A DNA stretch of 64,000 nucleotides. Origin: Acutalibacter sp. (GTDB taxonomy: Bacteria; Bacillota; Clostridia; Oscillospirales; Acutalibacteraceae). The stretch lies in assembly GCA_022511515.1 (NCBI GenBank), contig JAFLRP010000128.1, positions 3,851 through 67,850 on the forward strand. Reading direction: 5' to 3'. Below, one piece after another: positions 7,231-28,962 of this stretch; the first letter of the stretch is position 1; every line of letters starts with the position of its first letter. The translations under genes and the position numbers were made by a program. Under the pieces are notes generated by a model that ran no database searches, was not told where the DNA came from, and saw nothing but the letters and a program-made list of their open reading frames with translations.

Positions 7231-7578
7231 ATGTTTTTGACGCAAATTCTGGACTTTCTATCGGGGATCATCTATCTATTCCTGCACGTCACAGGCGGGG
7301 GGACGTTCCCGAAAGCCCTCAGCGCGCAAGAGGAGAAAAAATGTCTGGAAGAAATGGCACAGGGAAACGAAGCCGCCCGGCGCAAGCTGATCGAACACAA
7401 CCTGCGGCTGGTGGCGCATATTATCAAAAAATATTACGCAAATCAGAACGATCAGGAAGACTTAATTTCCATCGGCACCATCGGGCTCATCAAGGCCGTG
7501 GACAGCTTCAACGCCGACAAGGGAATCAAGCTGTCCAGCTACGCGTCAAGGTGTATAGAAAATACTATTCTCACATAG
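7231..7578 (+). CDS. sigK: sigK 5' segment (pro-sequence plus regions 1.2-2.4; spoIVCB-like), truncated by the intervening element
   Basis: MFLTQILDFLSGIIYLFLHVTGGGTFPKALSAQEEKKCLEEMAQGNEAARRKLIEHNLRLVAHIIKKY...DLISIGTIGLIKAVDSF...SYASRCIEN aligns with B. subtilis pro-sigma-K. After the core at 7555..7563 the frame reads TILT-stop. Confidence 0.88.
   Translation: MFLTQILDFLSGIIYLFLHVTGGGTFPKALSAQEEKKCLEEMAQGNEAARRKLIEHNLRLVAHIIKKYYANQNDQEDLISIGTIGLIKAVDSFNADKGIKLSSYASRCIENTILT
7555..7563 (+). repeat. left copy of the 9-bp recombination core (attL) ATAGAAAAT
   Basis: The identical 9-mer recurs at 34418..34426. Joining the two copies restores RCIEN|EILM in frame. Confidence 0.8.
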
Positions 7579-7799: not shown

Positions 7800-8222
7800 A
7801 TGCTAACAACCACAGCGGACAAGCTGCGGTATTACCGCTATCAAAAATCCCTGCTCCAGCGGGAAGTGGCGGAATACGCAGGGATCAATGAAAGCACCTA
7901 TATCGACTATGAAAGCGGAAACAGGGACTATTATCCCATCGACAAAATCCGGCGGATCGCCGATCTGCTGGAAATTCCGACAGAGACACTTCTGGACGAG
8001 TACAATCTGTTCCTCTGTAATCAGACCAAAACGCTGAAAGCCCTGCGGGAGCAGTGCGGGTGGACACAAAGCCAGCTTGCCGAAAAACTTTCCATAAGAC
8101 TTCACACCGTCAAACAGTGGGAGCAGGGAAGGGTGAGAATGACAAGGAAAATGTGGGAAAGACTTCAAAACCTCATGCCATCCAAATCGGTACGATCAGG
8201 TTGTTGCTGTCAAAGGCACTGA
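7800..8222 (+). CDS. XRE-family protein with two helix-turn-helix modules (start uncertain; frame open back to the att core at 7563)
   Basis: The two HTH modules are LRYYRYQKSLLQREVAEYAGINESTYIDYESGNR and LKALREQCGWTQSQLAEKLSIRLHTVKQWEQGR. The first ATG is at 7800, but the frame has no stop from 7563 onward. Confidence 0.6.
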   Translation: MLTTTADKLRYYRYQKSLLQREVAEYAGINESTYIDYESGNRDYYPIDKIRRIADLLEIPTETLLDEYNLFLCNQTKTLKALREQCGWTQSQLAEKLSIRLHTVKQWEQGRVRMTRKMWERLQNLMPSKSVRSGCCCQRH

Positions 8223-9402
8223 GCTGTTCTGCCATACAGAGAACAGCGCCTGTGCCAAGCTGCAGAGGGGACTTGTCGATGACGCCGAAAACACGAGTCA
8301 GGCGTTTGTCGGGCGTGGCGGTTTTCTTAATTTCCAGAGGGCAGAGCTTCCCGTCGCTCTCTAAGATCACATCGATTTCCTTAGAATCACGATCACGATA
8401 GAAATAGAGGTACGGCTCCAGTCCTGCGTTCTGATAGCCTTTCATGATCTCCGATATGGCGAAATTCTCAAGCAGAGCGCCGCTCATGGCACCGCTTTCG
8501 GCTACTTCCGGGGAGGACCAGCGGGTCAGATAGCAAACCAGACCAGTGTCGTAAAAATACACTTTCGGAGTTTTGATCGTGCGCTTGAGGATATTGTTGG
8601 AGTAGGGGTGCAGCAGGAAGATGATCCCCAGCGTTTCCAGAATGTTGATCCATGCCTTTGAGGTTGAAATGTCGATATCTGCATCGTCGGCCAATGCTTT
8701 GTAGTTCAAAAGCTGGGAGCAGCGGGCGGCAACGGCAGTGACAAAGCGATTGAACTTCAGAGCGTCTACGCTGCCCGAAAGCTCCCGCACATCTCGCTCC
8801 ATGTAGGTGGAAAGATAGGACGAATAGAAGACATTTCGGTCATCGTACTGTCCGCTGATGAGACCCGGCATAGAACCTTTCCAAATTCGCCGAAACAGTT
8901 CTGGGGTGGTGACGGGTTGGATCTGATTTTTCTCCAAGAGAAGCTGATTTAGATCTGTTGTAAACGGCACACAGGGCGCACCGATAATCTCCCGCTGGGA
9001 CATGGGGGACATATGCAAAAGCGCAACACGACCTGCCAGAGATTCCTGCACGCCGCGCATGAGACGGAACATTTGCGAGCCGGTCAGCCAGAAATCACCG
9101 GGATTGTGATGCCGGTCAATGTGAATTTTGAGATAAGAGAACAGCTCAGGCGCATATTGAACCTCGTCAATGAGAACAGGCGGCTTGTGAAGCTGCAAGA
9201 ACAGGGCAGGGTCATTCTTTGCCATGTCCCGCTCTGCGAGGTCGTCCAGCGTCACATAGCTCCGTCCGATGTTTTCTTTCTCTGCCAGCTCCCGCAGCAT
9301 AGTCGTTTTTCCTGCCTGCCGAGGTCCGGTCAGCAGAATGGCAGAGTAGGATTTGCTCAATTCCAAGATGCGGTTTTCCATATGTCTGCGAATGTATTTC
9401 AT
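8173..9402 (-). CDS. AAA-family ATPase (AAA_14/DUF4143-type)
   Basis: MKYIRRHMENRILELSKSYSAILLTGPRQAGKTTML carries a Walker A motif and VLIDEVQ a Walker B motif. The architecture is common on mobile DNA. Confidence 0.8.
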   Translation of the reverse strand: MKYIRRHMENRILELSKSYSAILLTGPRQAGKTTMLRELAEKENIGRSYVTLDDLAERDMAKNDPALFLQLHKPPVLIDEVQYAPELFSYLKIHIDRHHNPGDFWLTGSQMFRLMRGVQESLAGRVALLHMSPMSQREIIGAPCVPFTTDLNQLLLEKNQIQPVTTPELFRRIWKGSMPGLISGQYDDRNVFYSSYLSTYMERDVRELSGSVDALKFNRFVTAVAARCSQLLNYKALADDADIDISTSKAWINILETLGIIFLLHPYSNNILKRTIKTPKVYFYDTGLVCYLTRWSSPEVAESGAMSGALLENFAISEIMKGYQNAGLEPYLYFYRDRDSKEIDVILESDGKLCPLEIKKTATPDKRLTRVFGVIDKSPLQLGTGAVLCMAEQLSAFDSNNLIVPIWMA

Positions 9403-9712
9403 AAAAGCACCACCTGTAAGATTATTTCGGCAATTTTTGGGTTTATTCATATTATAGCCGAAATGAGCTGTACAGTCAACAAAATTTCGGCAGATTTATG
9501 ATATAGACAAAAACCTGCCGAAATATCACTGATAAACTCTATTCTGTCAGGTAATGGGAGCAGGGAAGGATAAGGATAGCGAAGAAAATGTGGAAGAGAT
9601 TTCTGTGTAACGGTATAGACGAGAGATCGTTCTTGAGAGAAATACCTTGACATTTTTTTCGCGTCAACGATATTCTGATACTAATTGATCCTAATAATTA
9701 TCGGAGGACGGT

Positions 9713-10906: not shown

Positions 10907-11497
10907 GTGGTGGACATACACAGTATTGTGGGGATTTGCCACCATCGGGCGCATCCGGGATATGTTACGGTGAAGCTGTTTGAAAAGCACAAGTGTCTTG
11001 AGAAAAACTGCCAGTTCCTGAAAAAGTTCGAGGAGTATCCCTTTTGGGTGAAACAAGCAAATAGACAGAGGGATAAAGAAAATAAGCGAGCCAAAGCAAA
11101 CCGTGCAAAAGCAAGGAAAACAGCTGAACAAGCAGCGGTGGAGAGTCGCACTGCGCTTTTGAAAACTGTAGCACAGGAAACAGCCGTCCGCCTGGGATTT
11201 CCTATTATCATCACGAGGGTATCGTCGCAAGCAGATCGAAAGGGCTACTATATCATCAATTATGTATCAGAGGAGCGCCACCCCGATTGGAGCGACTATT
11301 TTGATCTTGCTTTAGAAATGCGAAGACAGTTTGGAGGCAAATACACGCTTCGCCATGTTCGAAGTATATCGGGTCGATTTATGACCATATCCGAATGGGA
11401 AGAGGCGACAGGGAAAATGACGGGAAGAAGTAAAAAACACCGGGAATGGGCAAAGGGTTTGCGGAGGACAATCCTCCCATTGCTTGTATGCCATTAG
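10907..11497 (+). CDS. hypothetical protein (Cys/His-rich N-terminus, basic coiled middle)
   Basis: This is a 196-codon ORF with a GTG start and a protein-like composition. I do not recognise a family. Confidence 0.45.
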   Translation: MVDIHSIVGICHHRAHPGYVTVKLFEKHKCLEKNCQFLKKFEEYPFWVKQANRQRDKENKRAKANRAKARKTAEQAAVESRTALLKTVAQETAVRLGFPIIITRVSSQADRKGYYIINYVSEERHPDWSDYFDLALEMRRQFGGKYTLRHVRSISGRFMTISEWEEATGKMTGRSKKHREWAKGLRRTILPLLVCH

Positions 11498-11526
11498 ATA
11501 TCTTTCTACAAAAATCGACATTCCTC

Positions 11527-11555
11527 TTGAATTTATAAAACCTACAGGTTATAAT
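11527..11555 (+). promoter_or_regulatory. sigma-A-like promoter upstream of the AT-rich operon
   Basis: TTGAAT, a 17-nt spacer, then TATAAT. Such hexamers are frequent in AT-rich DNA, so support is weak. Confidence 0.3.
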
Positions 11556-11648
11556 GTATTTATATTTGTAAAGATATATAATAACAATAATATATAGTAA
11601 AACTATAGTGTATAAAAACTACCATTTTTAAGGGATGCACACAATAAA

Positions 11649-11825
11649 ATGATCAGTCCGTCCCCTTGTTTTTCACAATGGTTTGAAGGCAATATACGGG
11701 TTCTTCCATGCGATGATAACTCTATTGAAAACCTTTTCTATAAAGATGTAACTAGATTTTTGTTTATTCAAAATAAAAAGTTGAATATGTATTTTTTTCA
11801 ACAAAAGGAGAGGTATGTGAAATGA
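11649..11825 (+). CDS. 58-aa small ORF, possibly translationally coupled (ATGA) to the first operon gene
   Basis: My own translation is MISPSPCFSQWFEGNIRVLPCDDNSIENLFYKDVTRFLFIQNKKLNMYFFQQKERYVK. It falls below the ORF-track length cut-off. It stays open for 58 codons in ~30% G+C DNA, and its stop overlaps the ATG at 11822. There is no good RBS. Confidence 0.2.
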   Translation: MISPSPCFSQWFEGNIRVLPCDDNSIENLFYKDVTRFLFIQNKKLNMYFFQQKERYVK

Positions 11826-12472
11826 ATGAAAAAGATATTATATCTTCTGAAACAACAAATATTGCACTGTCTGCGGCTAGCTCTTTGGTAGGTTTTGCAA
11901 TTGGCGGTCCTGTGGGGGCAGTTGTTGGAGGTATCATGACACCTACTGTGAAATTGACTCACCTATTGATTAGTTCATGGTATGAAAGGCGTCAAGCGCG
12001 GATTACAAGTGTTGTAGAAGAAGCATTTGCAAGCTCAGGAAGAGAAGAAGAAGATATACTTCAGGAACTGTTAGAAAAGCCAGAATGGGCAGATTCTGTT
12101 GTCTCTATTATTCAACAATTAGTTTATACCGATCCAGAATTAGATAAATTATTCGCTAAAATTCTGGCTTCAGCTATAAAAACGGATGATGATAATGAGA
12201 GAAATCGATTAATAGTGCTTAACAGTTCTATTAAAGGATTGAATAGTGTTCAAGTTCAGATTGTAAGATGTCTATTTGTAGAAAAAAATGGTACGCTATC
12301 TGCTACAGAAATTTCAAAAAAGGTTAATGTTCCAGAAATAGATTTGAGAAATGCGGTTAGGGACTTGGAGCTAAGAGGGATGATCATTGATAATAGAACG
12401 GAACCCACAGTCTGGAAGCTGAGGGAATTAGGGATCGCTGTAGCAAAAGCAATTGATGTTTTGGAGGTGTAA
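11822..12472 (+). CDS. glycine-zipper (GxxxGxxxGxxxG) protein with C-terminal winged-helix domain
   Basis: SLVGFAIGGPVGAVVGGIM forms a GxxxG ladder. The C-terminal LSATEISKKVNVPEIDLRNAVRDLELRGMIIDNR looks like a MarR/wHTH fold. The RBS is AGGAGAGG. Confidence 0.7.
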   Translation: MNEKDIISSETTNIALSAASSLVGFAIGGPVGAVVGGIMTPTVKLTHLLISSWYERRQARITSVVEEAFASSGREEEDILQELLEKPEWADSVVSIIQQLVYTDPELDKLFAKILASAIKTDDDNERNRLIVLNSSIKGLNSVQVQIVRCLFVEKNGTLSATEISKKVNVPEIDLRNAVRDLELRGMIIDNRTEPTVWKLRELGIAVAKAIDVLEV

Positions 12473-12474
12473 AA

Positions 12475-13617
12475 ATGGAGTATATGTATTTTAATAATGC
12501 AGGCGCAGGAATAATGAGTCCTGCAACCTATAAAACTGTGCTTGATCATATGGCCCTTGAAATGAAGATTGGCGGATATGCAGCCGCTAATGTTAAAAGT
12601 GATGAGGTGAATCAATTTTACTCACTTGCTGCTAATTTATTAAACGCCCGCTCAAAGGACGAAATAGCATTTATTGATAGTGCCAGTCGAGGTTGGAATC
12701 TGGTTATGTACGGGTTAAATATTTCTAAGGCTGATACGATTGTTACTTTAGCGAGTGAGTATGGAACCAATCTACTAACTATCTATGACATTGCAAACAA
12801 GACATGTTGTGGTGTTAAAATTGTTAAGTGTGATGATAAAGGAATCTTCAATCTCGAGGATGTTGAGCAAGCATTAATAAGTGGAGGTACTATTTTGGCT
12901 GTTAGTCATGTTGCAGCTCAAGGTTCTATTGTTAATCCAGTTATTGAACTTGGCGCGCTTGCTAAAAAATACAATGTAACATATATTGTGGATGGATGTC
13001 AGGCAGTAGGGCAGATAAGAGTAGATGTTCAGCAAATAAATTGTTGTGCGTATATTACTGCTGGTCGTAAATGGTTGAGAGGTCCCCGAGGTACTGGTAT
13101 TTTATATGTGAGAAAAGATGCACCGATTCATACCCCACAAATTGACTTGGCATCTGCAGATTTGGTTTTTGATGAATTAGGAGAGGTGATAGATGTTAAA
13201 ATTCGAGAAGATGCGAAACAATTTGAATTATGGGAAAAAAGCACGGCGTCTCTATTAGGCTTGAGGAACGCTATTCAAGAGTATTTAGACTTTGGCATTG
13301 AAAATGCAGAGAAAGAAATATATGAAAAGGCTAATTATATTAGGAAATCTATCGTTAACAATCCTAATCTTTCATTAGTGGGAAGTGAGGTTTCTTCTTC
13401 TGGAGTGGTCGGATTTTATGTAAAAAACCCCCAGAGCGAAAACCTTGTTAAAGAAAGACTTGAAAAGCACAACTTTATTATTTCCTACATTTGCGATTGG
13501 GATTGCCCTATTTTCTTTCCCAAAAATGGAATTCATTATGTCTTCCGAATTTCGCCCCATTATTATACTAGTAAAGAGGAAATCCAAGCCATTTGTCAAT
13601 TAATTCAGGAATTATAA
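12475..13617 (+). CDS. class V aminotransferase-fold PLP-dependent enzyme (cysteine desulfurase/epimerase-like)
   Basis: FNNAGAGIMS, VSHVAAQGSIVNPV and IVDGCQAVGQIRVDV are present. AGRKWLRGPRGTGILYV is the PLP-lysine loop pattern. The RBS is GGAGGTG. Confidence 0.8.
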   Translation: MEYMYFNNAGAGIMSPATYKTVLDHMALEMKIGGYAAANVKSDEVNQFYSLAANLLNARSKDEIAFIDSASRGWNLVMYGLNISKADTIVTLASEYGTNLLTIYDIANKTCCGVKIVKCDDKGIFNLEDVEQALISGGTILAVSHVAAQGSIVNPVIELGALAKKYNVTYIVDGCQAVGQIRVDVQQINCCAYITAGRKWLRGPRGTGILYVRKDAPIHTPQIDLASADLVFDELGEVIDVKIREDAKQFELWEKSTASLLGLRNAIQEYLDFGIENAEKEIYEKANYIRKSIVNNPNLSLVGSEVSSSGVVGFYVKNPQSENLVKERLEKHNFIISYICDWDCPIFFPKNGIHYVFRISPHYYTSKEEIQAICQLIQEL

Positions 13618-13651
13618 ATTGTCTTTTTAATAGACGCAGAGGATAACGAAT

Positions 13652-14698
13652 ATGAACAATTATCAGACAATACTAAGTAGGAATTTGCCACAGTACGCCG
13701 AAAATGAACAGGTTTGTATTACAGGAGTTATTTGTAAAAAATGGGGAAGCAAAAATCATTTTGGCATATCTGTTAAGGATATAACCGGGACTGTTAGTAT
13801 AAGTTTTTTCAATAGTACAAAAGGTTATTCTAAGGAGTTATTTGCTATCGGAAACCGAATACGGATATATGCTAGTGTTTGCATTGATCGCAGAGGTTCT
13901 AAATGTCTTGGTAATGTTGATAACGTGGAATTTCTTGAGGAAATCAGTCAGTTCAATAAAGAATTTGATATTCTTGAACAGGAATCACTCGTAATGCTGA
14001 GCATAATTAGCAATAAGATATGTGCACAATTAGTTAATCTTGGTTATATTGAAGTAAGTACGCGTGTTATATCAAGATTTTTAGGAGAAGAATTACTGGA
14101 GCCCCTTTTTGCAGAGTACCCCGGCTTTGGTACTCCAGCATACTTATCTCCTTCACCCTCATCTCAATTGTCGGAATTTTTAGCTGTCACATTATTACCA
14201 AAAGTGTTTACCGAAACAATTTCTTTTACTACAAGTCATCGTTTTCCGAATGGCTCAACTGAAATGCCAATTATTATGGCAAAAGCTATTAACATGCACA
14301 AGGCCGAAGAAAAAAATGCTGTTCTTCGCATTTCAAAAAGTATCGTTAACTCATTGTCAGATAAGACATTTCAAGTAGATACCATCTTTGGCAATTGGGA
14401 CGATGTATCACCGTTGAACCAAAATCGTACTAATGGCACTTTTACATACGGTATATATTCGTCCAATATTCCAACCGTTGGTCGCAAATGGAATTCCGTG
14501 GTTTGTACCATTTACAGATTTGAGGATGATAAAGGGAATTTATTAGTAGAAGGTTCAACTGAAGCAATAAATGATACTACAAGTATCACTACCTTTACAT
14601 TCTATCCTTCGCAATTTTTGAATTGGATATCAAAGGCACCGAAACGCCAGCTACTCAACTTGTGGAAGATGTATGACGGAGGAAGTATATATGGCTGA
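13652..14698 (+). CDS. class IIb aminoacyl-tRNA synthetase paralogue (Asp/Asn/Lys-RS-like), apparently catalytically degenerate
   Basis: It shows an N-terminal OB-fold pattern VCITGVICKKWGSKNHFGISVKDITGTVSISFF. Motif-1-like LGYIEVSTRVIS and YLSPSPSSQL are present. Motif 2 is replaced by SFTTSHR, and the protein ends at ...DGGSIYG, where motif 3 should lie. It is only 348 aa. Confidence 0.6.
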   Translation: MNNYQTILSRNLPQYAENEQVCITGVICKKWGSKNHFGISVKDITGTVSISFFNSTKGYSKELFAIGNRIRIYASVCIDRRGSKCLGNVDNVEFLEEISQFNKEFDILEQESLVMLSIISNKICAQLVNLGYIEVSTRVISRFLGEELLEPLFAEYPGFGTPAYLSPSPSSQLSEFLAVTLLPKVFTETISFTTSHRFPNGSTEMPIIMAKAINMHKAEEKNAVLRISKSIVNSLSDKTFQVDTIFGNWDDVSPLNQNRTNGTFTYGIYSSNIPTVGRKWNSVVCTIYRFEDDKGNLLVEGSTEAINDTTSITTFTFYPSQFLNWISKAPKRQLLNLWKMYDGGSIYG

Positions 14699-16577
14699 TA
14701 ATTATAGCATTGTAGAGCCGTTAGGTAATCAAGATCGAGACACCAAACTTGAACGATATTGGAAGAGTTTTGAAGGCAAATATGGACTTAGAACATCACG
14801 TATAATTCAATTTGATCCTTACGCTTCAATGTCAAGATCTCCAGTTCAGTATAAACTGGAGAAGTTCAATCTAAATAGGGATATCCCCAGTCAAGAATGG
14901 ATTAGAGACAATTTGAAACAGTTTATTCGAGAAGAGATAATGGTGTCTGCTTCCGAGATACCTCAATATTTTTCTCCCGAAATAGATGGCGAAATAATTC
15001 TTCCAGACGAATATCTTACTGATTTTTTGCATAATAGTGAATGGGATAATTTTTTGAAAGTTGAGCTGCCAAAAGATGATACTGATTCAGAGATGGCTAA
15101 TTGCATTTATAGACTCTTATGCAATCCTCAAATAGGGTCATCGAAAAATGCAGTCAATAACGACGAATCAGAATTTATTAACCACATTCTTCCCTTGATT
15201 GAGCAAAGAAAGCGTCTTCTATTTGTATTACCGGGTTTTCCATTTAAGGACCAGAACAAGTTTCGGGTTCCTTATGATGCGGCTCGCATTGATTTTAGCG
15301 AAATATCTTTCATAATACGTTTGCATAATCTCATTCAATCCTTATATCAAGTTCATCCATTTGGAGCGGAAGCGATCGTACTTTCTGATGGTCGCTTATA
15401 TCAGGATATCTTCTATATAGATCCCATAGAAGTAGAAGAGTACCAATGGAGATTACATGACTATAGAAATAAGCTGAACATTCAGGGGGATGTTTCCATT
15501 ATCGACTTGATGGATTTAATAGAGCGAGCAAATGAAGATGGAGAGATAACAAAATTGATCCAACATCTGGAAACTGTTATTTCAAATGATTATGCGCAAG
15601 AAGATTTTTTTCTTAATCTTATTCAGGGCATGAAATGGAACTTGAATTCAAGAAAGCTTCTCAAAGATTATGATGACATTGATTCATGGAATATAATTAA
15701 GAGTAATCGCTGTGATGTTAGAAGGGATTTGCTTAAAATTTGGAATGATTATCATAATATTGCAAAAGAAGCCGCAGTAAGATATGCGGCTGTTAATCTA
15801 ATGTTGAAGTGGACTGACTTGATTCGGAAATTTTTTCCTGAATCTATTAGGTGTACTGTCCATGCAAAAAAGAATCAATTTGCATTAGCAAAGAGTTACG
15901 CTTGGAATGGTATTGCATGGTCAGAAAGGTGGCCAAAGACATTGAGGGATATTACTACAGTACCATTTTACATGTTAGGAAAGTATGTTAAAGTTAAACT
16001 TGCAACGTTTCAAAGCACGAAGTTTCCTTGCTTTTTTACAACAGAGCGGTATAATCAAAATTTAGATTATGCGAAAAACATTCTTGAAGCAGATGGGTGG
16101 AATGTAGACAATATTTTTGGAAGAGAATTTAACATTTTTGATTTAGCGGAATTTGTTGAACTTGGTAGAGATGATGAAAATTTTGCATGGGAAAAGAAAG
16201 AAATGTCTGAAGAGTACTATAAAGCGCTACTTCAATTCCGCATTGGCCATTATAAAAAGTACGGTTTCGGTGTACATGCTATATTTATGGATGGTAATCT
16301 TATAGGCCAGATGGGATTACAGGTATTAGATGAGCAGAAAAACCAGATAGAATATGTAATCTTTCTCGGAAAAGATTATGTGCATAAGGGAATTGGCTCT
16401 AAACTATTGAAATATTTATTTTCTAGGTGCAAGGAAGAAGGTCTTACGACTGTGTTTGGCGTGATTCGTAGTGATAACGATATTTCAAGACACATTGTGG
16501 AGAAATTCGGAGGGAAAATGGTTAGGACAATGGCTCATTATCATCAATCTGGAGTTTTATATGAGATCGAACTATGA
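14691..16577 (+). CDS. DIT1/PvcA-family (isonitrile synthase / N-formyl-tyrosine family) domain fused to a C-terminal GNAT acetyltransferase
   Basis: LLFVLPGFPFKDQNKF...LYQVHPFGAEAIVLSDGRLYQDIF...EVEEYQ aligns by eye with PvcA IHFVLPAFPAKSPN...YAPGARLTICSDGRVFSD. FPESIRCTVHAKKNQ matches FP..LRLSIHPQ. The GNAT motif A is YVHKGIGSKLL. The start at 14691 has GGAGG 7 nt upstream and overlaps the previous stop by 8 nt. Confidence 0.7.
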   Translation: MADNYSIVEPLGNQDRDTKLERYWKSFEGKYGLRTSRIIQFDPYASMSRSPVQYKLEKFNLNRDIPSQEWIRDNLKQFIREEIMVSASEIPQYFSPEIDGEIILPDEYLTDFLHNSEWDNFLKVELPKDDTDSEMANCIYRLLCNPQIGSSKNAVNNDESEFINHILPLIEQRKRLLFVLPGFPFKDQNKFRVPYDAARIDFSEISFIIRLHNLIQSLYQVHPFGAEAIVLSDGRLYQDIFYIDPIEVEEYQWRLHDYRNKLNIQGDVSIIDLMDLIERANEDGEITKLIQHLETVISNDYAQEDFFLNLIQGMKWNLNSRKLLKDYDDIDSWNIIKSNRCDVRRDLLKIWNDYHNIAKEAAVRYAAVNLMLKWTDLIRKFFPESIRCTVHAKKNQFALAKSYAWNGIAWSERWPKTLRDITTVPFYMLGKYVKVKLATFQSTKFPCFFTTERYNQNLDYAKNILEADGWNVDNIFGREFNIFDLAEFVELGRDDENFAWEKKEMSEEYYKALLQFRIGHYKKYGFGVHAIFMDGNLIGQMGLQVLDEQKNQIEYVIFLGKDYVHKGIGSKLLKYLFSRCKEEGLTTVFGVIRSDNDISRHIVEKFGGKMVRTMAHYHQSGVLYEIEL

Positions 16578-16589
16578 AAGGAGCATATA

Positions 16590-17009
16590 ATGCCTGTTTG
16601 CTATATAACATTATCAGAAATCAAACCAGAACTAACTAACGAAGAAATTCAATGTATAAGAAAAATAGTAGCAAAGGGATTGGATTCGACTTCCAAAAAA
16701 CTTGATGAGACACATATTGTTACACGTACGCATTATTCAAGTCGAGAATCTATGCTAGGTGATATCGAGATTGATATTTTTTCGCAATTATATTTAAGGC
16801 GACTATTCTCAAGAGATAAACGAGCAAACTATATTTCAAAGCAAATTTCGGAATTTTTAGGATGTTGCTGCGCAACTTGGATAAATATGGAGATTGTTGG
16901 TTATTCAAGGGTTGCACTCGACGGTAATGTTTTCTATTCGGACTCCGATAATTTTTTCGTTCGTCTTTTTCAAAGGGTTAGAGGTGTATCTACACACAAG
17001 AACAAGTAG
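16590..17009 (+). CDS. 139-aa protein; possible tautomerase-superfamily member (N-terminal Pro1, two beta-alpha-beta units)
   Basis: MPVCYITLSEIKPELTNEEIQCIRKIVAKGL resembles the 4-OT-type MPxxxIxL...helix pattern. The RBS is AAAGGAG. The functional call is weak. Confidence 0.55.
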   Translation: MPVCYITLSEIKPELTNEEIQCIRKIVAKGLDSTSKKLDETHIVTRTHYSSRESMLGDIEIDIFSQLYLRRLFSRDKRANYISKQISEFLGCCCATWINMEIVGYSRVALDGNVFYSDSDNFFVRLFQRVRGVSTHKNK

Positions 17010-17353
17010 TGAAATTGCATGTCTGGAGATATCTTTCTTTGTGCGCAGTTTTTCTGCATCAACTTATATAAGTCATCTTAATGTTCTAAACTACGAAAAG
17101 TGCTTTTGCTTATCTGCAATAAGAAAAAATGATCCTATGTCTCGGTTTACCAAAAGCGAAGTCCTTCTATTCCTTCTTAAGAATTGCGCAATTCAGATCA
17201 TTTCCCCTATTATTTCTTTGAACAGTATCTATATGAAGATCAATTATTGGAAAAGTCAATGCGTACAATTTATCTGTTCTTTTTGAACCATTTTCTTCAC
17301 CGCTGGTTAGGCCAATTATTTACGTGATGTTAAGTCCTTTCCAAAAACTATAC

Positions 17354-17375
17354 AGGTGGTAGTACACTACCACCT
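17354..17375. repeat. perfect 22-bp palindrome AGGTGGTAGTACACTACCACCT
   Basis: I read it directly from the sequence. It lies in the non-coding tract between the AT-rich operon and the tyrosine integrase. Confidence 0.6.
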
Positions 17376-17558
17376 AGCAAAACTTTGATATACTGTCTTT
17401 GTTGTCTATGTCCATTCTGACCAAGGCAGAGCACCTATTCCGGGTATCATTTCTTACTTTGTCACCCATCGGCTGAGGTTTCTGTTTTTTCCAGAGCGTT
17501 ATACTCTCACACTTTCCTGTTTCGTGCCATTAGCCAGTCACAGAAAATGGTCATTTAC

Positions 17559-17601
17559 AAAAAGATCCGGGGTTTTGATGTTCAAAACCCCGGATCTTTT
17601 T
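17559..17601. terminator. strong bidirectional terminator hairpin
   Basis: AAAAAGATCCGGGGTTTTGA-TGT-TCAAAACCCCGGATCTTTTT has ~20-bp perfect arms flanked by A and T tracts. Confidence 0.65.
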
Positions 17602-17723
17602 GCATTATTACATTACCCGCTCCTCCAACATTTTGAAAGATATCATACGGCTTACATCTGTATGTTCTTCACCTGTGCAAAAACTGTACAGTTTATTGAT
17701 TTTTGACTAAGATGAAGTCTTAT

Positions 17724-20019: not shown

Positions 20020-22950
20020 TTATTCCTCAAATTCGCTGAAAGCTTTTATCTGTGTCGAGCCTTGTTCCGTGGGGACGTGAATTGGCGGAGGAACAATTCC
20101 TGAGGAGAAAGCCTGTGCTGTCTTTGGGCAGACACGTCTCACGTCACAATTATCGCACTTCTCTCGACAGGGCCGCATCGGAAAATCATTATCAAGTATG
20201 CAGTCAACTGCCCAGCTAATATTTTCAATTGCTGCTGAAACTGCGGTATCATTAACCGGGATGTTTATTCGGGCGCTTGGACCGCTTTCTTTCAGCAAAT
20301 GGACCGAACCGGTTTTTGCATCTTCTCCTAGAACCTGATTAGCCGCATATGCATATAATTGTACCTGTAAGGACAAATCAATCCAGTCATTGGGAGTATC
20401 ATCGTCTGGGGCATCTAGCGACTTAAAGTCAATAACATGAGAATCGACAATATTACCATGTTCATCGCGTTTGAGTAATAAATCAATGGCACCGGAAACC
20501 ATAGCTTGTCCTATAGTTATCTCAAATCTCGCTTCGTCCTCACGCAATCGCTCAAAATCTGGTGAAAAAGCTGATACATAATTTTGTGCAATTTCCAATG
20601 CACTATTGTATGCCCGTTCATAGGGACCAAGACGCTGAGTTGGATCATTGCTCGGGAAAATGTGCTTAAGATGGAATGTCGATTCAACCAAGGCTGCCAC
20701 TTCTTGCTGTGAGGGGACACTGTCTGGATGCTGCTGGTGTAGACGTTCAATAATGGTGTGCGTTGTAAGACCAAAACCGAACAATTCCGGGACGGCCGGA
20801 TTAAAACCAAATAGCTTCTTCAATTTATATCCCATTGGGCAAACAAGATATTCCTTTATATCTGAATAACTTGTCGGCAGGATCGTTTCATCAATTCTAC
20901 GCTTTTGAACGATATACTCAATATTTTTCGGTAATGCTGGATCAGATGGTACTCCTAAATTATCAATTCTTCTCTTAAAATCAGAGGGAGTCTTAGGTTT
21001 TTGTGCATCAGGTTGCTGGGCTGCACCTGTAATGTATAAGAATCGTTCTGCGCGGGTCATGGCAGTATAAAAGAGTCGCGCTTCATCCTGACGGGTTGTA
21101 CAGTAGGCACCGCGGTCAATCGGGTCAGTCATTAGGGCTGCCGGCAACCAGCCGGAATATGTGCTTCTATCTGATGGGAAACGCCGATTGACAACATCGA
21201 CAATAAATACGACCGGGTACTCCAAGCCTTTCATTTTGTGAATAGTAGAAATCGTGACGGCATCTGGCCGCGCCATCACATCTAAAGTGCTTACATCATA
21301 GCCTGTTTCCGCAACATTTGATAGGAAGTTTAGAATTTCTACATATCTGGATGGAGAATCAATGCTTACATAGACCTTCTCAACATCAAGTATTATTTTA
21401 CTAAACACACCCAAATCACGTAAAACCACATCATCAAAGTGAGATCTCTCTACTCCAAATGCATTTAGGATTTGGTGCAACAATTCTTGCGGATAGACCT
21501 TCCTCCTAGCACCACCAGCGGGAGTATGTATCAACAAGTTCCAATCTGAGATGACCCGTGATAATTTGGTAAAGTCTGCTCTTGGAAAACAATCAATGAT
21601 TTCACTGTCAAATAGTGAGCGCATCGCTTCTCTTGTTGGAGACGGCTCTCGCAATAATTCCATTGTATTGCGTATTGCAACAGCATGAGGCCGCTCAAAT
21701 ATTCCGCCCTCCGCTTCAAGGGTATATGGAATTCCGGCAGCTCTAAGCGCGTTTGAAAATTCAACGTGACGATGGGGAAGATTGTGCGGATTATAACTTC
21801 GCTTAATGGACCGAAATAGTATAGCAAAATCTGCCGGCGTTAATCCTCGTTCCTCACGAACGGTTCCGTCAGCATTATATTCTGTATATTTTGTGCCCAA
21901 TAAATCATGAATCCTTTGGGCCACCCACGATGCCTCTTCGTCCCTTGTTGTAAACCACAAAGAACGAAAGTCTTGGATATTACCATCGCTATGTGAGGAT
22001 GGATTCTTAGTGTACCGGGCCGTGCTTAACTCTTGCTGGATAAATTGATCGGATGCTCTAACGATAGCAGTTGTACTTCGAAAATTGGTACTCAGTATAT
22101 GAATGCTGCTTTGGGGATAACGAGTTTGGAAACTCAAAATGTTGTTTACATCGGCTCCGCGCCATGCGTAAATTGATTGATCATCATCGCCAACAACCAT
22201 GAGTGTGTCTGAGCGATCACGCAGTTGGCGGATAAGGCGTTCCTGCATTGGATTAATATCTTGATATTCATCCACAAATATATGGCGTATGCCATGGAGT
22301 GCCTGATCTATCGCTGGGGAAGCTTGCTCCAATTTCTCAACTGCAAGACGAATCATAAGCGAAAAATCAATGTATTGATCATGATCCAAACTTGTATATA
22401 TTCTTTTCAGCAAGTTGCCAAGCGTTGCATTCTCATGCACTATGTCATCATAGTTCAATGCTTCATCGTTCGCTGTACTCCATGCACTTGAGACTTCACG
22501 TATTGTCGTAAACATTTTAGAATTTCGCTCTGCCCTAATAACACTGAGGCCAAGGGAACGATAACGGGACAGCAAGTACAGTTTTAAGCCATTTTCATCC
22601 AATACTTCAAATTGGCGATATCTAGCATCAACATTTCCTAGTAGATGCTGGCAATATGAATGTATTGTGCCAATATACATTGCTCCCACCAGTGTTTGGG
22701 GTAAGCCGAATTTAGATAGCGCCTCCGATACACGACGTTTAATTGATTCTGCAGCTTTGTCAGTAAATGTAAATGCTACGATTGAATCTGCCGGACACCC
22801 CGTGGCAATAAGGTAGGCTATCCTGAATGCTAATGTTCGCGATTTTCCAGATCCGGCACAAGCTAAACATAGGATATCACGATGGTCATCAAGGACAGCA
22901 AGCCGCTGCTCATCGGTTAAGTAGTGTTCCAAAACTTGCGTTATATCCAT
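20020..22950 (-). CDS. UvrD/Rep-family SF1 helicase fused to a C-terminal Cas4/AddB-type Fe-S PD-(D/E)xK nuclease
   Basis: The helicase motifs are ACAGSGKSRT (I), VDEYQD (II), VGDDDQSIYAWRGA (III), TIHKMKGLEYPVVF (V) and YTAMTRAERFLYI (VI). The nuclease part has GAIDLL, VIDFKS and QVQLYAYA. Cys at LVCPMGY plus CREKCDNCDVRRVC forms a four-Cys staple. Confidence 0.85.
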   Translation of the reverse strand: MDITQVLEHYLTDEQRLAVLDDHRDILCLACAGSGKSRTLAFRIAYLIATGCPADSIVAFTFTDKAAESIKRRVSEALSKFGLPQTLVGAMYIGTIHSYCQHLLGNVDARYRQFEVLDENGLKLYLLSRYRSLGLSVIRAERNSKMFTTIREVSSAWSTANDEALNYDDIVHENATLGNLLKRIYTSLDHDQYIDFSLMIRLAVEKLEQASPAIDQALHGIRHIFVDEYQDINPMQERLIRQLRDRSDTLMVVGDDDQSIYAWRGADVNNILSFQTRYPQSSIHILSTNFRSTTAIVRASDQFIQQELSTARYTKNPSSHSDGNIQDFRSLWFTTRDEEASWVAQRIHDLLGTKYTEYNADGTVREERGLTPADFAILFRSIKRSYNPHNLPHRHVEFSNALRAAGIPYTLEAEGGIFERPHAVAIRNTMELLREPSPTREAMRSLFDSEIIDCFPRADFTKLSRVISDWNLLIHTPAGGARRKVYPQELLHQILNAFGVERSHFDDVVLRDLGVFSKIILDVEKVYVSIDSPSRYVEILNFLSNVAETGYDVSTLDVMARPDAVTISTIHKMKGLEYPVVFIVDVVNRRFPSDRSTYSGWLPAALMTDPIDRGAYCTTRQDEARLFYTAMTRAERFLYITGAAQQPDAQKPKTPSDFKRRIDNLGVPSDPALPKNIEYIVQKRRIDETILPTSYSDIKEYLVCPMGYKLKKLFGFNPAVPELFGFGLTTHTIIERLHQQHPDSVPSQQEVAALVESTFHLKHIFPSNDPTQRLGPYERAYNSALEIAQNYVSAFSPDFERLREDEARFEITIGQAMVSGAIDLLLKRDEHGNIVDSHVIDFKSLDAPDDDTPNDWIDLSLQVQLYAYAANQVLGEDAKTGSVHLLKESGPSARINIPVNDTAVSAAIENISWAVDCILDNDFPMRPCREKCDNCDVRRVCPKTAQAFSSGIVPPPIHVPTEQGSTQIKAFSEFEE

Positions 22951-22968: not shown

Positions 22969-24402
22969 CTACTGCAAAAAATCAACGAGCTGCGATTTAA
23001 GATCTTCTACATTAGAAGTTTTTATGTCGCATTGCCATATGACAAGATATTGCCACCCTTTTTTTGTGCATTCATCATAATTTCGTTGATCTCTTGCAAC
23101 ATTACTTTGTATTTTTTCGGTCCAAAATTCCTTATTGGTTTCCGGCAAATGACCTCGTTTGCAATTATGCCCATGCCAAAAGCAACCATTAACAAATATG
23201 GCTTTTTTCCTCGAAGGAAAAACTATGTCAGGATGGCAACTAAGTTTCTTAGTTGAAAGACGATATCTATACCCAAGAATAGTCAACAACTTTCGAATAA
23301 ACAACTCTGGAGAGGTGTCTTTGTTTCTGACCCTTTTCATTATTTCAGAGCGCTTTTCCGAATCAAATATATCAGACATAAACACCTCGTCTAACTTTTG
23401 GCGTATTTGGACACTTTGAGCAGAGCAAAAAATCGGAGGCAAAGCGTTGCCAATCATCAGTGCTAAGTTTGTAAGGGGAATGTCTTCAGGGAAAATATAA
23501 TTTTTCCTAAACGTTTGCAATAGAGCAGCCTCTCTGGCCGTAATGCATCTGTTTTCCACAGGATGAAGGAATCGACCTTTAGATGGGTTTAGACATCCGC
23601 CAGTAATGGTTGATGAGACGTCATTCCAACGAAGTCTCCCATATACATCATTAAACCCGACCCCCTCTTTGCGATGGCACTCAAGAGTATATGCATCTGG
23701 AAGATCGCATCGGCTCCCGCCATCAATAGGAATAAGCCGTATTCTTTCCATAACCGCTTCTGAATGATGTGGATACCGGCGATGAACCGGATCAGTGGTC
23801 TCATCAACACTCTGCATTTTTCCAATATAATCTTTAACCGTGTAAAGCTTTGAATTGCCATCTGCAATAGATATATTTCCCAAAAGCGACCCAGTCATGA
23901 CCAGTCGCTTCCTTCGCTGAGGAACCCCATAATTCGCAACATTTACTATCTTATATTGCGGATTGTATCCAAGTTTTTTTAATCGAGTAAACACCCGCTT
24001 AAATAGTGTGTAGTTTTCTATGCCCGGCACGTTTTCCAGCATGATGCAAAGTGGTTGCAATTCCTCAACCATCCTACAATATTCAAGGATAAGACTATTC
24101 CTTGGATCCTTTGATGATTTTTTTCTATTCTTTTTTCTCAGTGATGAAAAACCCTGACAAGGTGGACAGCCTGCCAATAAATGTAAGGGTTCTCCATTTA
24201 GCAACTGAAGGATCTCATCAGACTGCAGTTGTCGAATATCGGTTTCAAACAAGGTGACCCCATTTTGTTCATGGTTAGCGCGGTATGTCTTAGCAGCAAA
24301 ATTATCTATTTCAACAGCAGCGACAACATGAAAGCCAGCGTTTATTAGCCCTTCGGTCATACCACCACAACCTGAGAACAAATCAACAGCATTATATGGC
24401 AT
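22969..24402 (-). CDS. DNA (cytosine-5)-methyltransferase fused to a Vsr-type very-short-patch repair endonuclease
   Basis: The m5C motifs are DLFSGCGG (I), GCPPCQGFS (IV), ENV (VI), QRRKR (VIII) and GNALPP (X). The C-terminal ~140 aa SEKRSEIMKRVRNKDTSPE...PDIVFPSRKKAIFVNGCFWHGH is Vsr-like. It lies 18 nt upstream of the helicase-nuclease, with GGAGG in the gap. Confidence 0.85.
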   Translation of the reverse strand: MPYNAVDLFSGCGGMTEGLINAGFHVVAAVEIDNFAAKTYRANHEQNGVTLFETDIRQLQSDEILQLLNGEPLHLLAGCPPCQGFSSLRKKNRKKSSKDPRNSLILEYCRMVEELQPLCIMLENVPGIENYTLFKRVFTRLKKLGYNPQYKIVNVANYGVPQRRKRLVMTGSLLGNISIADGNSKLYTVKDYIGKMQSVDETTDPVHRRYPHHSEAVMERIRLIPIDGGSRCDLPDAYTLECHRKEGVGFNDVYGRLRWNDVSSTITGGCLNPSKGRFLHPVENRCITAREAALLQTFRKNYIFPEDIPLTNLALMIGNALPPIFCSAQSVQIRQKLDEVFMSDIFDSEKRSEIMKRVRNKDTSPELFIRKLLTILGYRYRLSTKKLSCHPDIVFPSRKKAIFVNGCFWHGHNCKRGHLPETNKEFWTEKIQSNVARDQRNYDECTKKGWQYLVIWQCDIKTSNVEDLKSQLVDFLQ

Positions 24403-24719: not shown

Positions 24720-25775
24720 TTACAGTGGCCCCTTGTTATGCTTTCGCATGGCAAAAATAACAATAACCGCGGTGTAAAGCAGGACGACACTGAGTGGCAA
24801 AAATAAGGGAATGCCGTTTCCCAGCCAGAGCAGCAGTTTGCTCCCGCAGAGCAGTCCGCTGTGGGTGAAGGACAGGAACGGGGCGTTCCACAGCATGGGA
24901 ACGACTAAGACGCACAACCCGAGGAAAATCATATTGGAGACATTTTTGCCCCAAACGGAACAGCCGAACACCAAGGCGGCAAACAGCAGAGCGGCGGCGC
25001 TGCGATGGAGCAAGCTGAACAGGTATCCCTGCAAAAGGGAAACATCCAAAGTACATTCTGTCATGGCGCTGACAGAATAGATGGGGACATGGGGATCGTT
25101 CAGCCAGCCCCGTAGGGAAAACACGGCAAGTTCCAGTCCGCCGAAAATCAGAGCGGCCATGAGACTTGTCAGCAGCAGGGCAAAGAGCTTTGCCCTGAAA
25201 AGCCGCCCTCTCCCGTTTCTTGCAGACAGCAGTACGGGAAGCATTCCGGCAGAAACTTCCATAGAAAAGCACTGGGCACTGAGCAATAATAAACCGGCGA
25301 TCAGGAAAATATCCGGGAATTGCTGGAGCGTGAAAACCGTCTGCCAGCCGTATTCGTAACTGTAATGAGCGGGGGGCAATTCCGAGGATTGTTCCGAAAA
25401 CTGATCTGCTTTTTCATAGAAAATTTCCGTGGCGTTTTTGTGGAGATAGGCGAGGCTTAATTTCTCCATATAGGCAGACCATTCCTCCTCGGCCAATTCG
25501 CCCCGCCGGTACTGATCTTCCATAAATTCCTGGTTGTTGATGACCGCCTTGCAGTTTTCGTATTCCGCTGTGATCCACGCCGTTTTCTCCGGCGTGTTTT
25601 CCCCTTGAAGCTCCGCAAGGTACTTGTCGTACTGCTTTTGGGAAAGGGCGATTCGGGAATCCTTTATCTCCGGAAAACAGTCCAGAAACAATGCTTTTAG
25701 AAGTAGACACACCAGCAGAATGAGAAGTCCCTTTTGGGTAAGAAGTAGTTTCTTTAATTCGGAACGAAACAGCAT
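24720..25775 (-). CDS. ABC-2-type transporter permease-like membrane protein
   Basis: It has an N-terminal TM, a ~130-aa extracytoplasmic loop and five or more further TMs. It overlaps the upstream permease gene and follows an ABC ATPase gene. Confidence 0.6.
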   Translation of the reverse strand: MLFRSELKKLLLTQKGLLILLVCLLLKALFLDCFPEIKDSRIALSQKQYDKYLAELQGENTPEKTAWITAEYENCKAVINNQEFMEDQYRRGELAEEEWSAYMEKLSLAYLHKNATEIFYEKADQFSEQSSELPPAHYSYEYGWQTVFTLQQFPDIFLIAGLLLLSAQCFSMEVSAGMLPVLLSARNGRGRLFRAKLFALLLTSLMAALIFGGLELAVFSLRGWLNDPHVPIYSVSAMTECTLDVSLLQGYLFSLLHRSAAALLFAALVFGCSVWGKNVSNMIFLGLCVLVVPMLWNAPFLSFTHSGLLCGSKLLLWLGNGIPLFLPLSVVLLYTAVIVIFAMRKHNKGPL

Positions 25776-27025: not shown

Positions 27026-27912
27026 ACCGCCGCCTCCTTTGAGGTCTCTCGGAAATGGTAGAGGTACAAATCTTCCAGATTGGGTTGGACGGGTACGCCA
27101 AGGGGACAGGAATCCCCCACAATTCGTAGTAGGACTTGTTCTCCCTGACTCTGCACATTGCCCACTAGAGCCTTAGCCTGCCAAGCGGTGACCTCCTTGG
27201 GCGCAACTGCAAGGGAAAATACCTTTCCCACCATGCTTTCCCGCAACGCTTGCGGTGTATCCCGGGCAATGAGCTTTCCCGCCCGCAGCATCAGAATGTC
27301 CTTGGCGATAAATTCAATGTCCGAGACAATGTGGGTGGTCCAGATCACGATTTTGTCCAGCGCCACCGTGGCGATAGTGTTTCTGAGCCGTACCCGCTCC
27401 TGGGGGTCCAGCCCTGCGGTGGGTTCGTCCAAAATCAGGAGCTTCGGGTCGTTTAAGAGGGCTTGGGCAATGCCCAATCTTTGGCGCATGCCGCCGGAAA
27501 ATTCCCCGATCTTCCGCCGTGCGTCCCCTTGGAGGTTTACCGTTTCCAGCAACCGGTCCACGGTAATTCCCAGTTCCTTCTTGCTCAGCTTCATGCCCTT
27601 TACCGCCGCCATATAGCAAAGAAATTCGTCCGCCCGGAAAGATTTGTACAGGGAGGGCGTCTGGGGCTGAAAGCCTAAGATATCCCGAAATCTCCAGTCA
27701 AGAACGGAAATGTCCTCTCCGTCCCATAACACTCTGCCACCAGTGGGTCGCAAAATGCCCGCAATGATATTCACCAGCGTGGTTTTCCCCGCGCCGTTTG
27801 GTCCAAGTAATCCGTGTACGCCCTCGTTTAGGGAGAAAGATACCGTATTAAGCGCCTTACAATTCCGATAGTCCTTTGTGATTTTCTCTACAGAAAGTTC
27901 CATATATAACAT
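27022..27912 (-). CDS. ABC transporter ATP-binding protein
   Basis: Walker A GPNGAGKTT, the signature FSGGMRQR and Walker B LLILDEPTAGLD are present. Confidence 0.9.
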   Translation of the reverse strand: MLYMELSVEKITKDYRNCKALNTVSFSLNEGVHGLLGPNGAGKTTLVNIIAGILRPTGGRVLWDGEDISVLDWRFRDILGFQPQTPSLYKSFRADEFLCYMAAVKGMKLSKKELGITVDRLLETVNLQGDARRKIGEFSGGMRQRLGIAQALLNDPKLLILDEPTAGLDPQERVRLRNTIATVALDKIVIWTTHIVSDIEFIAKDILMLRAGKLIARDTPQALRESMVGKVFSLAVAPKEVTAWQAKALVGNVQSQGEQVLLRIVGDSCPLGVPVQPNLEDLYLYHFRETSKEAAV

Positions 27913-28958: not shown

Positions 28959-28962
28959 AATG

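Follow-up and report, generated by a model that had tools for sequence, protein, structure and literature searches.

Enzymes of the PvcA/IsnA type turn the α-amino group of an amino acid into an isonitrile, and every substrate of this family known to us is a free amino acid. Yeast Dit1 likewise acts on the α-amino group of a free amino acid and yields N-formyl-tyrosine (PMC7345447). In a 64,000-nt stretch of contig JAFLRP010000128.1 from Acutalibacter sp. (hereafter, the window), we analysed a five-gene operon, g1 to g5, which lies on the + strand at positions 11822–17009 and whose fourth gene encodes a relative of these enzymes fused to a GNAT domain. The remaining genes encode a glycine-zipper/winged-helix protein (g1), a class-V pyridoxal phosphate (PLP) enzyme (g2), a truncated paralogue of the class IIb aminoacyl-tRNA synthetases (aaRSs) (g3) and a protein with a tautomerase-superfamily fold (g5). 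g4 shares a true DIT1_PvcA domain and the family motifs with the proteins of PvcABCD and IsnAB clusters. It differs from PvcA and IsnA in an N-terminal extension of ~165 residues, in the fused or adjacent GNAT, in its constant aaRS-fold partner and in its defence-island and mobile-element setting. Furthermore, the cassettes contain neither the PvcB/IsnB oxygenase of isonitrile clusters nor the P450 (Dit2) of the Dit1/Dit2 pair; a preliminary description of this DNA had already remarked on the lack of an Fe(II)/2-oxoglutarate oxygenase, and none is present in the window or in ~18 related contexts. The five genes are best explained as a single functional module that moves horizontally, and not as a cluster formed by chance.

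The operon was initially taken for an orphan. This view is refuted by 122, 84 and 118 homologue clusters for g4, g3 and g5, respectively, and by conserved cassettes elsewhere. Co-conservation in other genomes, a check proposed together with that view, is decisive: the same order and strand are found in 12 independent loci from at least six phyla, and the order g1-g2-g3-g4-g5 on one strand holds in every sufficiently long locus examined. Carriers include metagenome-assembled genomes (MAGs) of Mucilaginibacter (Bacteroidota), Oscillospiraceae and Eubacterium, as well as Ignavibacteria, Fimbriimonas (Armatimonadota), and Acidimicrobiia and Leucobacter (Actinomycetota). A Thermoplasmatales archaeal MAG carries a four-gene form without g1. 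The cassette is also carried by a cultured isolate, Catenibacillus scindens DSM 106146, in which a 5.6-kb contig (locus L013) stops inside g2 and leaves g1 out of view. As the cassette is present in non-sporulating phyla, the suggested parallel with the spore-wall role of yeast Dit1 is unsupported. A pattern-based scan of 185,579 species-representative genomes recovered 10 loci, a lower bound, indicating a rare and very patchy distribution. Searches of 50,697 phage genomes, of 2.9 million IMG/VR viral contigs and of the PLSDB plasmids did not recover the cassette, and an exact-sequence look-up of P0118, a homologue from a Paenarthrobacter plasmid, gave no record.

Several features mark the five genes as one unit. 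The window and its closest relatives are ~73% identical at the nucleotide level, with homology beginning at ~11822–11853, the start of g1, and ending at ~16952–17008, the stop of g5. The amino-acid identities of the five genes drop in parallel with distance. In the closest comparisons the ratio of nonsynonymous to synonymous substitution rates (dN/dS) is ~0.05–0.17 for every gene, a rough estimate with dS near saturation, and all five genes are under purifying selection. In addition, the g3 and g4 frames overlap by 4–20 nt in nine of nine gene-called loci, and the constancy of this overlap suggests conserved translational coupling. The G+C content of the cassette is no higher than that of at least one flank in every host and is below both flanks in 9 of the 14 compared; in an actinobacterial example, the cassette has 54% G+C and its flanks have 62–64%.

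In the window, the five same-strand open reading frames (ORFs) occupy the positions first assigned to them: g1, 11822–12472 (216 aa); g2, 12475–13617 (380 aa); g3, 13652–14698 (348 aa); g4, 14691–16577 (628 aa); and g5, 16590–17009 (139 aa), with gaps of 2, 34, −8 and 12 nt. The 8-nt overlap between g3 and g4 depends on the g4 ATG at 14691. Public annotation of an identical contig starts g4 at this codon, and GGAGGA lies 7 nt upstream of it. Ribosome-binding sites of the GGAGG type, proposed for every gene, are found before g1, g2, g4 and g5 (AGGAG or GGAGG), and g3 has only a weaker AGAGGA. The block is indeed AT-rich, with 35.6% G+C across 11500–17700 against 52–58% in the outer window and flanks; the earlier figure of 28–35% was slightly too low (34.5–37.5% per gene as measured), and the leader upstream of g1 has 28%. 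A 58-aa ORF upstream (11649–11825), put forward as a sixth gene, is conserved only in identical contigs and hence lies outside the unit.

Variant operons define what is indispensable. In loci L026 and L020, a separate GNAT gene directly follows the PvcA-like gene. The operon of L027 (679–4338) encodes a fusion of an XRE-type helix-turn-helix (HTH) with a g3-like protein, a PvcA-like protein (4-nt overlap), a Dabb protein and a separate GNAT, and it has no PLP enzyme, g1 or g5; the g3 and g4 profiles match its proteins with E values of 7e-25, 8e-82 and 4e-29. A minimal two-gene form in Kribbella sp. (L021, 5595–11389) consists of a g3-like gene and a PvcA-like gene without GNAT, and its g3-like protein passes the Pfam tRNA_anti-codon model with 40.8 bits against a cut-off of 27. 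The invariant core is therefore the aaRS-fold protein plus the PvcA-like enzyme. L021 is the only variant seen without a GNAT; in the others a GNAT of the RimJ/Naa50 type is part of g4 or encoded next to it. The DNA-binding HTH comes as g1 or joined to g3, and the PLP enzyme and the tautomerase-fold or Dabb proteins are interchangeable accessories.

g4 is composed of a family-specific N-terminal region of ~165 residues, a DIT1/PvcA domain (~15195–15875) and a GNAT domain (~16122–16514). The N-terminal region is conserved and has no known relative. The proposed fusion of a DIT1/PvcA domain to a GNAT is borne out by Pfam and by solved structures. Specifically, DIT1_PvcA (PF05141) is matched with 76.8 bits (gathering threshold 26.4; E = 2.6e-21) and is present in 37 of 37 aligned homologues, and the protein aligns with the isonitrile synthase 9dh4 (E = 4.5e-13) and with PvcA 3e59 (E = 6.7e-9). 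In the alignment with 9dh4, LPGFPFKDQN of g4 pairs with LPAFPTKSPN, IRCTVHPK with IRLSIHPQ, and SDG with an identical SDG; the corresponding motifs FPxK..N, SDG and IRxxxHP are invariant throughout the g4 family. The GNAT domain (E = 5e-10) matches Acetyltransf_1 and Acetyltransf_3, the latter of the RimJ/RimL type, and carries an acyl-CoA-type signature, KGIGSKLL; its closest solved relatives are the N-α-acetyltransferases Naa50, RimI and ARD1. g4 scores only 42.1 bits against the equivalog model of the L-tyrosine isonitrile synthase PvcA (NF045653; cut-off 600) and is not a PvcA orthologue.

The assignment of g3 to the class IIb aaRS paralogues proved right, on the strength of structural and family-profile matches. 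The single sequence gives no significant Pfam or PDB match, and a plain PDB sequence search is uninformative. With a profile built from 39 homologues, LysRS (the best match, E = 1.4e-4), AspRS and AsnRS are recovered. The AlphaFold2 model (predicted local distance difference test (pLDDT) score 74) consists of an N-terminal OB anticodon-binding fold and a class II core, and its top 50 Foldseek matches are all AsnRS, AspRS or LysRS over the full length (E ~1e-14, probability 1.0). g3 has no Pfam tRNA-synt_2 match, scores 16.2 bits against the tRNA_anti-codon cut-off of 27 and passes no NCBIfam aaRS threshold; it is not a functional aaRS orthologue. A homologue in the JGI database is labelled "truncated, possibly inactive lysyl-tRNA synthetase". 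g3 thus shares the OB domain and class II core of class IIb enzymes, and differs in length (80–140 residues shorter than genuine enzymes), in a family-specific C-terminal tail (P330, R332, N336, L337 and W338) and, by one alignment, in motif 2.

The catalytic motifs of g3 were thought to be eroded, which is correct only in part. In an ungapped hidden Markov model alignment to LysRS, the canonical motif-2 fRxE is replaced, with FRNE opposite F-T-S-S and the ATP-contacting His and Phe opposite Gly and Met. In addition, the G-rich motif 3 (GxGxGxxR) is not recognisable in the C-terminal sequence by inspection. However, a nearly invariant arginine, R197, follows four residues after the canonical motif-2 position, and the ungapped and 4-residue-shifted alignments are equally parsimonious, in a motif-2 loop that is modelled at low confidence. 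Furthermore, an SPSxQ stretch is conserved across the superfamily, and YPGFG, SPSxQL, SFTTxYR and a C-terminal PxRxLxxL are kept even among members that are ~20% identical. SPSxQ appears to resemble the SPQ amino-acid-binding motif of AspRS. Judged by these alignments, the pocket of g3 appears to be remodelled, not decayed. In class IIb OB domains a glutamine reads U35; this position is not conserved in the g3 family. Among non-canonical aaRS paralogues, EpmA/PoxA and AsnA have no OB domain, and g3 differs from them in keeping one, while distant g3 family members bear an N-terminal HTH as does BirA, which joins an HTH to a class-II-like ligase.

g2 matches Aminotran_5 in Pfam (E = 1.7e-43), in agreement with its first description as a class-V-fold PLP enzyme. 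It is of the SufS/CsdA type: the nearest NCBIfam models are SufS (E = 1.4e-34) and EgtE (E = 3.8e-34), and it aligns end to end with the cysteine desulfurase 5b7s (E = 7.7e-27). Two residues are invariant in 11 cassettes: the PLP lysine (GRKW), opposite the GHK lysine in the 5b7s alignment, and a cysteine (DWDCP) in the loop that bears the catalytic cysteine of desulfurases. In 5b7s this loop reads GHHCA, and the two cysteines are one residue out of register. g2 thus shares with SufS/CsdA cysteine desulfurases the fold and the PLP lysine, has a candidate for the loop cysteine, and differs in falling far below all equivalog cut-offs (119.6 bits against a SufS subfamily cut-off of 475) and in having no acceptor partner, as no SufE-, SufU- or TusA-like gene is present in the cassette. 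It also matches the PADLOC models for DndA (E = 4e-24) and SspA (E = 1e-23), a generic likeness given that SufS scores better, and weakly resembles SepCysS (E = 9.6e-5).

g5 is the most conserved of the five genes. Across 39 sequences, M1-P2 (the Pro1 of tautomerases), C4, S9, D39, H42, E60, Q66, R71, R75, D76 and R78 are invariant. Its AlphaFold2 model (pLDDT 95) contains two β-α-β units and is matched by Foldseek to Cg10062, cis-CaaD and MIF (probability 1.0, template modelling (TM) score 0.5–0.6, identity 9–16%), so that fold and invariant Pro1 both uphold the proposed tautomerase likeness. None of the 39 members matches Pfam Tautomerase, Tautomerase_2/3 or MIF, even at E values up to 1, and g5 is therefore a new sequence family with a tautomerase fold. 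A g5 profile search of the PDB returned nothing useful, and a fold search of BFVD returned nothing significant. With cis-CaaD, Cg10062 and MIF, g5 shares the two-repeat β-α-β fold and the invariant Pro1. It also has an invariant arginine pair, R71 and R75, which may be placed like the carboxylate-binding Arg70 and Arg73 of cis-CaaD; the rest of its invariant set (C4, D39, H42, E60, D76 and R78) is different.

The glycine ladder and the winged helix first noted in g1 are both confirmed by homologues. Residues G24, G28, G29, G32, G36 and P41 of the hydrophobic N-terminal segment are invariant and form a GxxxG ladder, and the C-terminal winged helix matches TrmB in 11 of 13 homologues, some of which or of the others match HTH_24 or MarR_2 (E values down to 7e-9); PADLOC likewise gives weak winged-helix matches. 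From these sequence features, g1 is probably a regulator or sensor, the alternative being a membrane effector. An assignment to Abi_alpha, matched weakly by the window protein and in only 1 of the 13 homologues, was dropped.

The preliminary description placed the operon on an element that is lost from the mother-cell chromosome at sporulation. In keeping with it, the two halves of a split sigK-type gene and an adjacent recombinase define a skin-like element: the N-terminal half lies at 7231–7578 (ending '...SYASRCIENTILT*') and the C-terminal half (regions 3–4) at 34436–34786, immediately downstream of a 570-aa large serine recombinase (32716–34428). The cassette is cargo of this element of ~27 kb and 35–50% G+C, which also contains a tyrosine integrase. 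Its other defence-like cargo, all on the − strand, encodes the candidate defence ATPase PDC-S01 (AAA_14/DUF4143; 8173–9450; E = 1e-108) and two fusion proteins, one of a UvrD/GajB-like helicase with a PD-(D/E)XK nuclease (20020–22950) and one of a Dcm cytosine methylase with a Vsr endonuclease (22969–24402).

Known defence genes recur beside the cassette in other hosts, giving strong support from context to the earlier idea of a defence or abortive-infection-like cargo. QatABCD and Abi_2 adjoin it in L009, two DNA methyltransferases and Abi_2 in L010, PDC-S06 and a serine recombinase in L004, Lamassu LmuA/LmuB in L012, DISARM DrmA in L018 (E = 6.5e-277), Hma HmaB/HmaC in L020 and an AAA_15 ATPase in L026. 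The Kribbella two-gene form lies directly beside the gene for the Shedu nuclease SduA, with PIN_4 and Imm1 immunity-protein genes also adjoining. In L024 the neighbours are SNF2, NOV_C and SWI2/SNF2 helicases and a WYL regulator, together with antibiotic-resistance-type genes (APH, GNAT and adenylyltransferase). The L027 operon adjoins a Fic gene and a serine recombinase, and the L023 cassette is part of an integrative and conjugative element that encodes type IV secretion; islands bearing recombinases are among the other settings. DrmMI models are matched by two pooled neighbour proteins that are not assigned to a locus. Altogether, a recognised defence system is found within a few kb (~0.5–8 kb) in at least 8 of ~18 independent contexts, and most of the others are mobile-element settings. 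No exporter, carrier protein or oxygenase occurs in any of the ~18 contexts.

From the folds, conserved residues, co-conservation, g3–g4 coupling, selection, boundaries and context, we infer a substrate, a product, accessory roles and a function in defence. In the model that we propose, g3, which appears to retain the amino-acid site of class IIb enzymes, no longer charges tRNA and would hold an amino acid or aminoacyl compound in its remodelled aaRS pocket, and the PvcA-like domain of g4 would convert the α-amino group of the held compound to an isonitrile or N-formyl group. The GNAT domain could acetylate the free α-amine, to protect the cell itself or to tailor the product once more. The substrate would be supplied or tailored by g2 and g5, and regulation or sensing would fall to g1 or, in L027, to the HTH joined to g3. 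As an exporter is never part of the module, its product should act inside the cell, and the genomic setting of the module makes defence against phages or mobile elements its most likely role. Taken together, a defence-island module that performs α-amino chemistry on amino acids, makes an effector or signal and acts against phages or mobile elements is the reading that we favour, with a confidence somewhat short of even. Isonitriles react with sulfane sulfur to give isothiocyanates, and g2 might provide persulfide sulfur for such a step. A more specific form of the reading, in which a new immune system uses an aaRS scaffold to present a free or tRNA-bound amino acid to an isonitrile-synthase-like enzyme, and the resulting reactive N-modified amino acid (an isonitrile or, should g2 contribute sulfur, an isothiocyanate) poisons translation or serves as an effector or signal, is conceivable and on balance doubtful; it would bring isonitrile-type chemistry and a pseudo-aaRS into antiviral defence for the first time.

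A number of points weigh against a defence module with α-amino chemistry. The role in defence would rest on guilt by association, not on proof; the 8 of ~18 is a raw count taken without a statistical defence-score background, and loci L007, L014, L015, L016 and L019 have no recognised defence gene nearby. With a score far below the PvcA equivalog cut-off, g4 may catalyse something other than the formation of an isonitrile or N-formyl group. Binding of ATP, an amino acid or tRNA by g3 is a prediction only, and its most conserved stretch, residues 139–167, is modelled at low confidence. Finally, an ordinary small biosynthetic cluster would just as typically show interchangeable tailoring genes (PLP enzyme and tautomerase versus Dabb).

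This last point bears on a rival explanation, an ordinary secondary-metabolite cluster unrelated to phages that makes, for example, a metal-binding or antimicrobial isonitrile or an N-formyl amino-acid derivative. Here g3 would be a carboxylate-activating ligase, comparable to the fungal isocyanide-synthase/NRPS-like (nonribosomal peptide synthetase-like) CrmA, the GNAT would confer self-resistance, and the islands would reflect horizontal transfer only. All enzymes of the cassette indeed come from small-molecule families, the tailoring genes vary as they do in the evolution of biosynthetic clusters, and the L024 cassette lies beside antibiotic-resistance-type genes. However, an exporter, carrier protein or oxygenase is found in 0 of ~18 contexts, the canonical motif-2 and motif-3 ATP-binding residues are not recognisably kept in g3, known defence systems recur beside the cassette, and perfect five-gene synteny across phyla combined with patchy occurrence is more typical of defence or conflict cassettes; we judge this explanation unlikely. 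The main rival, a toxin or abortive-infection system that poisons aminoacyl-tRNA, would share the defence-island context with our favoured reading. In such a system g3 would use its OB anticodon-binding domain and aaRS core to capture one specific charged tRNA. Isonitrile or formyl formation by the PvcA-like domain of g4, or acetylation by its GNAT domain, would then block the α-amino group of the attached amino acid and halt elongation in the manner of AtaT, TacT and ItaT, and a SepCysS-like action of g2 on the tRNA-bound amino acid would be conceivable. The complete class IIb architecture of g3, including the OB domain, the passing tRNA_anti-codon score of the Kribbella protein (40.8 bits against 27), the N-α-acetyltransferases closest to the GNAT domain and the weak similarity of g2 to SepCysS (E = 9.6e-5) are consistent with it, as is the two-gene form next to Shedu, which manages without tailoring enzymes. 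Yet neither a conserved antitoxin-like ORF nor a tRNA gene accompanies the cassette, and toxicity is a prediction only; the U35-reading glutamine is not conserved, known PvcA-family substrates are free amino acids, and a tautomerase, a Dabb protein and a cysteine-desulfurase-like enzyme fit pure tRNA blocking poorly. This too we consider improbable.

A sulfur-using modification of nucleic acid, of the Dnd/Ssp or tRNA-thiolation type, would have g2 give a persulfide and g3 target tRNA or DNA. The desulfurase-type PLP lysine of g2, its candidate loop cysteine, its matches to the DndA and SspA models and the OB nucleic-acid-binding fold of g3 point in this direction. Against it, the DndA/SspA likeness is generic and exceeded by SufS, no DndC/D/E, SspB–D, ThiI or MnmA-like partner is present in the cassette, the PvcA-like core enzyme has no known role in nucleic-acid chemistry, and g2 is absent from L021 and L027, so that sulfur transfer cannot be the core function; such a system is very unlikely. 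Unrelated or decaying genes could in principle have come together by chance in an AT-rich island, for which only the unusual gene combination would speak. This explanation is already refuted by synteny in at least 12 loci, purifying selection, conserved overlaps and invariant catalytic residues, and its probability is negligible.

Other features of the region concern expression and movement of the cassette. The best + strand match to a σ70-like promoter (TTGAAT-17-TATAAT, 11527–11555) agrees with the consensus at 10 of 12 positions and is a candidate by consensus match only. A perfect 21-nt inverted repeat at 17558–17602, with arms CAAAAAGATCCGGGGTTTTGA and TCAAAACCCCGGATCTTTTTG and a 3-nt spacer, is preceded by a run of A and followed by a run of T. 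It separates the operon from the integrase gene that converges on it, and is a candidate terminator for both directions. Scans of the region for Rfam families and tRNAs found zero RNA genes and no tRNA gene linked to the cassette; two sub-threshold microRNA-like Rfam matches are due to this hairpin. An imperfect 24-nt direct repeat (79% identity; exact core AGATATCTTTCT) brackets the AT-rich block, with a left copy at 11484–11507 (+), a right copy at 17015–17038 that starts 6 nt past the g5 stop, and an inverted copy at 17635–17656. Flanking direct repeats of relatives are longer, with 54 nt in L009 (4722/10518) and 46 nt in L007 (4695/10402), and their sequence differs host by host among the window, L009 and L007. 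These repeats may be insertion-site duplications or an insertion scar, hinting at dedicated movement of the cassette, and the match in the window could be due to chance. Elsewhere in the window, a block of 38–44% G+C (24720–30045, −) contains an ABC transporter ATPase and permease pair (25775–27912) flanked by three 350-aa ORFs (24720–25775, 27912–28958 and 28963–30045) without Pfam or PADLOC match. In the Ignavibacteria MAG (L014, 12592–18752), 1559-aa and 495-aa ORFs that match neither Pfam nor PADLOC lie directly downstream of the cassette and may be another uncharacterised island gene pair.

The statement that no characterised pathway or defence system has this gene combination withstood comparison with canonical isonitrile clusters, aaRSs, SufS, GNAT toxin–antitoxin systems and PADLOC, none of which accounts for it. 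g3, g4 and g5 match no model in PADLOC-DB v2.0, and a PHROGs scan of g3–g5 was uninformative. In the literature, with subscription journals mostly outside the scope, we found no connection between phage defence and isonitrile or isocyanide synthases, DIT1/PvcA, tautomerases or aaRS-like proteins, nor a description of this combination. On the evidence at hand, we regard the module as a kind of system that has not been described before, assembled from known folds, and as a strong candidate for a new conflict system. If it is a true defence or conflict system, it would bring a new enzymatic principle to prokaryotic immunity, namely α-amine (isonitrile or N-formyl) chemistry directed by a pseudo-aaRS. 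It would also give a first role to a widespread, unstudied branch of DIT1/PvcA, to a new class IIb aaRS paralogue family and to a new tautomerase-fold family. If it is instead a small biosynthetic cluster, it would represent an unrecognised oxygenase-less isonitrile-type pathway that has spread horizontally among gut Firmicutes, soil Actinobacteria, Bacteroidota and an archaeon. The cultured carrier Catenibacillus scindens DSM 106146 makes the hypothesis directly testable.

Among systems that act on aminoacyl compounds, the GNAT toxins AtaT, TacT and ItaT and the acetyltransferases MccE/RimL resemble the cassette in a GNAT with N-α-acetyltransferase relatives. The cassette differs from GNAT toxin–antitoxin systems and from MccE in having no antitoxin gene, no MccA/B-type genes and no match to a PADLOC or toxin–antitoxin model, and in carrying its GNAT fused to or after a PvcA-like protein. 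Microcin C targets AspRS, and MccE/RimL acetyltransferases detoxify mimics of aminoacyl-adenylates; the class IIb aaRS-like partner in the cassette recalls this target, a parallel that serves as a lead only. Among known enzyme-based defence systems that make or modify small molecules or nucleic acids, a core of pseudo-aaRS and PvcA-like enzyme is not described in the literature searched, and only g2 resembles PADLOC models. As in Dnd/Ssp, a cysteine-desulfurase-like PLP enzyme is part of the cassette, here with no obvious nuclease or pore-forming effector. In its overall form, the cassette is similar to prokaryotic viperins, Dnd/Ssp and Qat with its QueC-like QatC, in that it is compact, rich in enzymes and located in defence islands.

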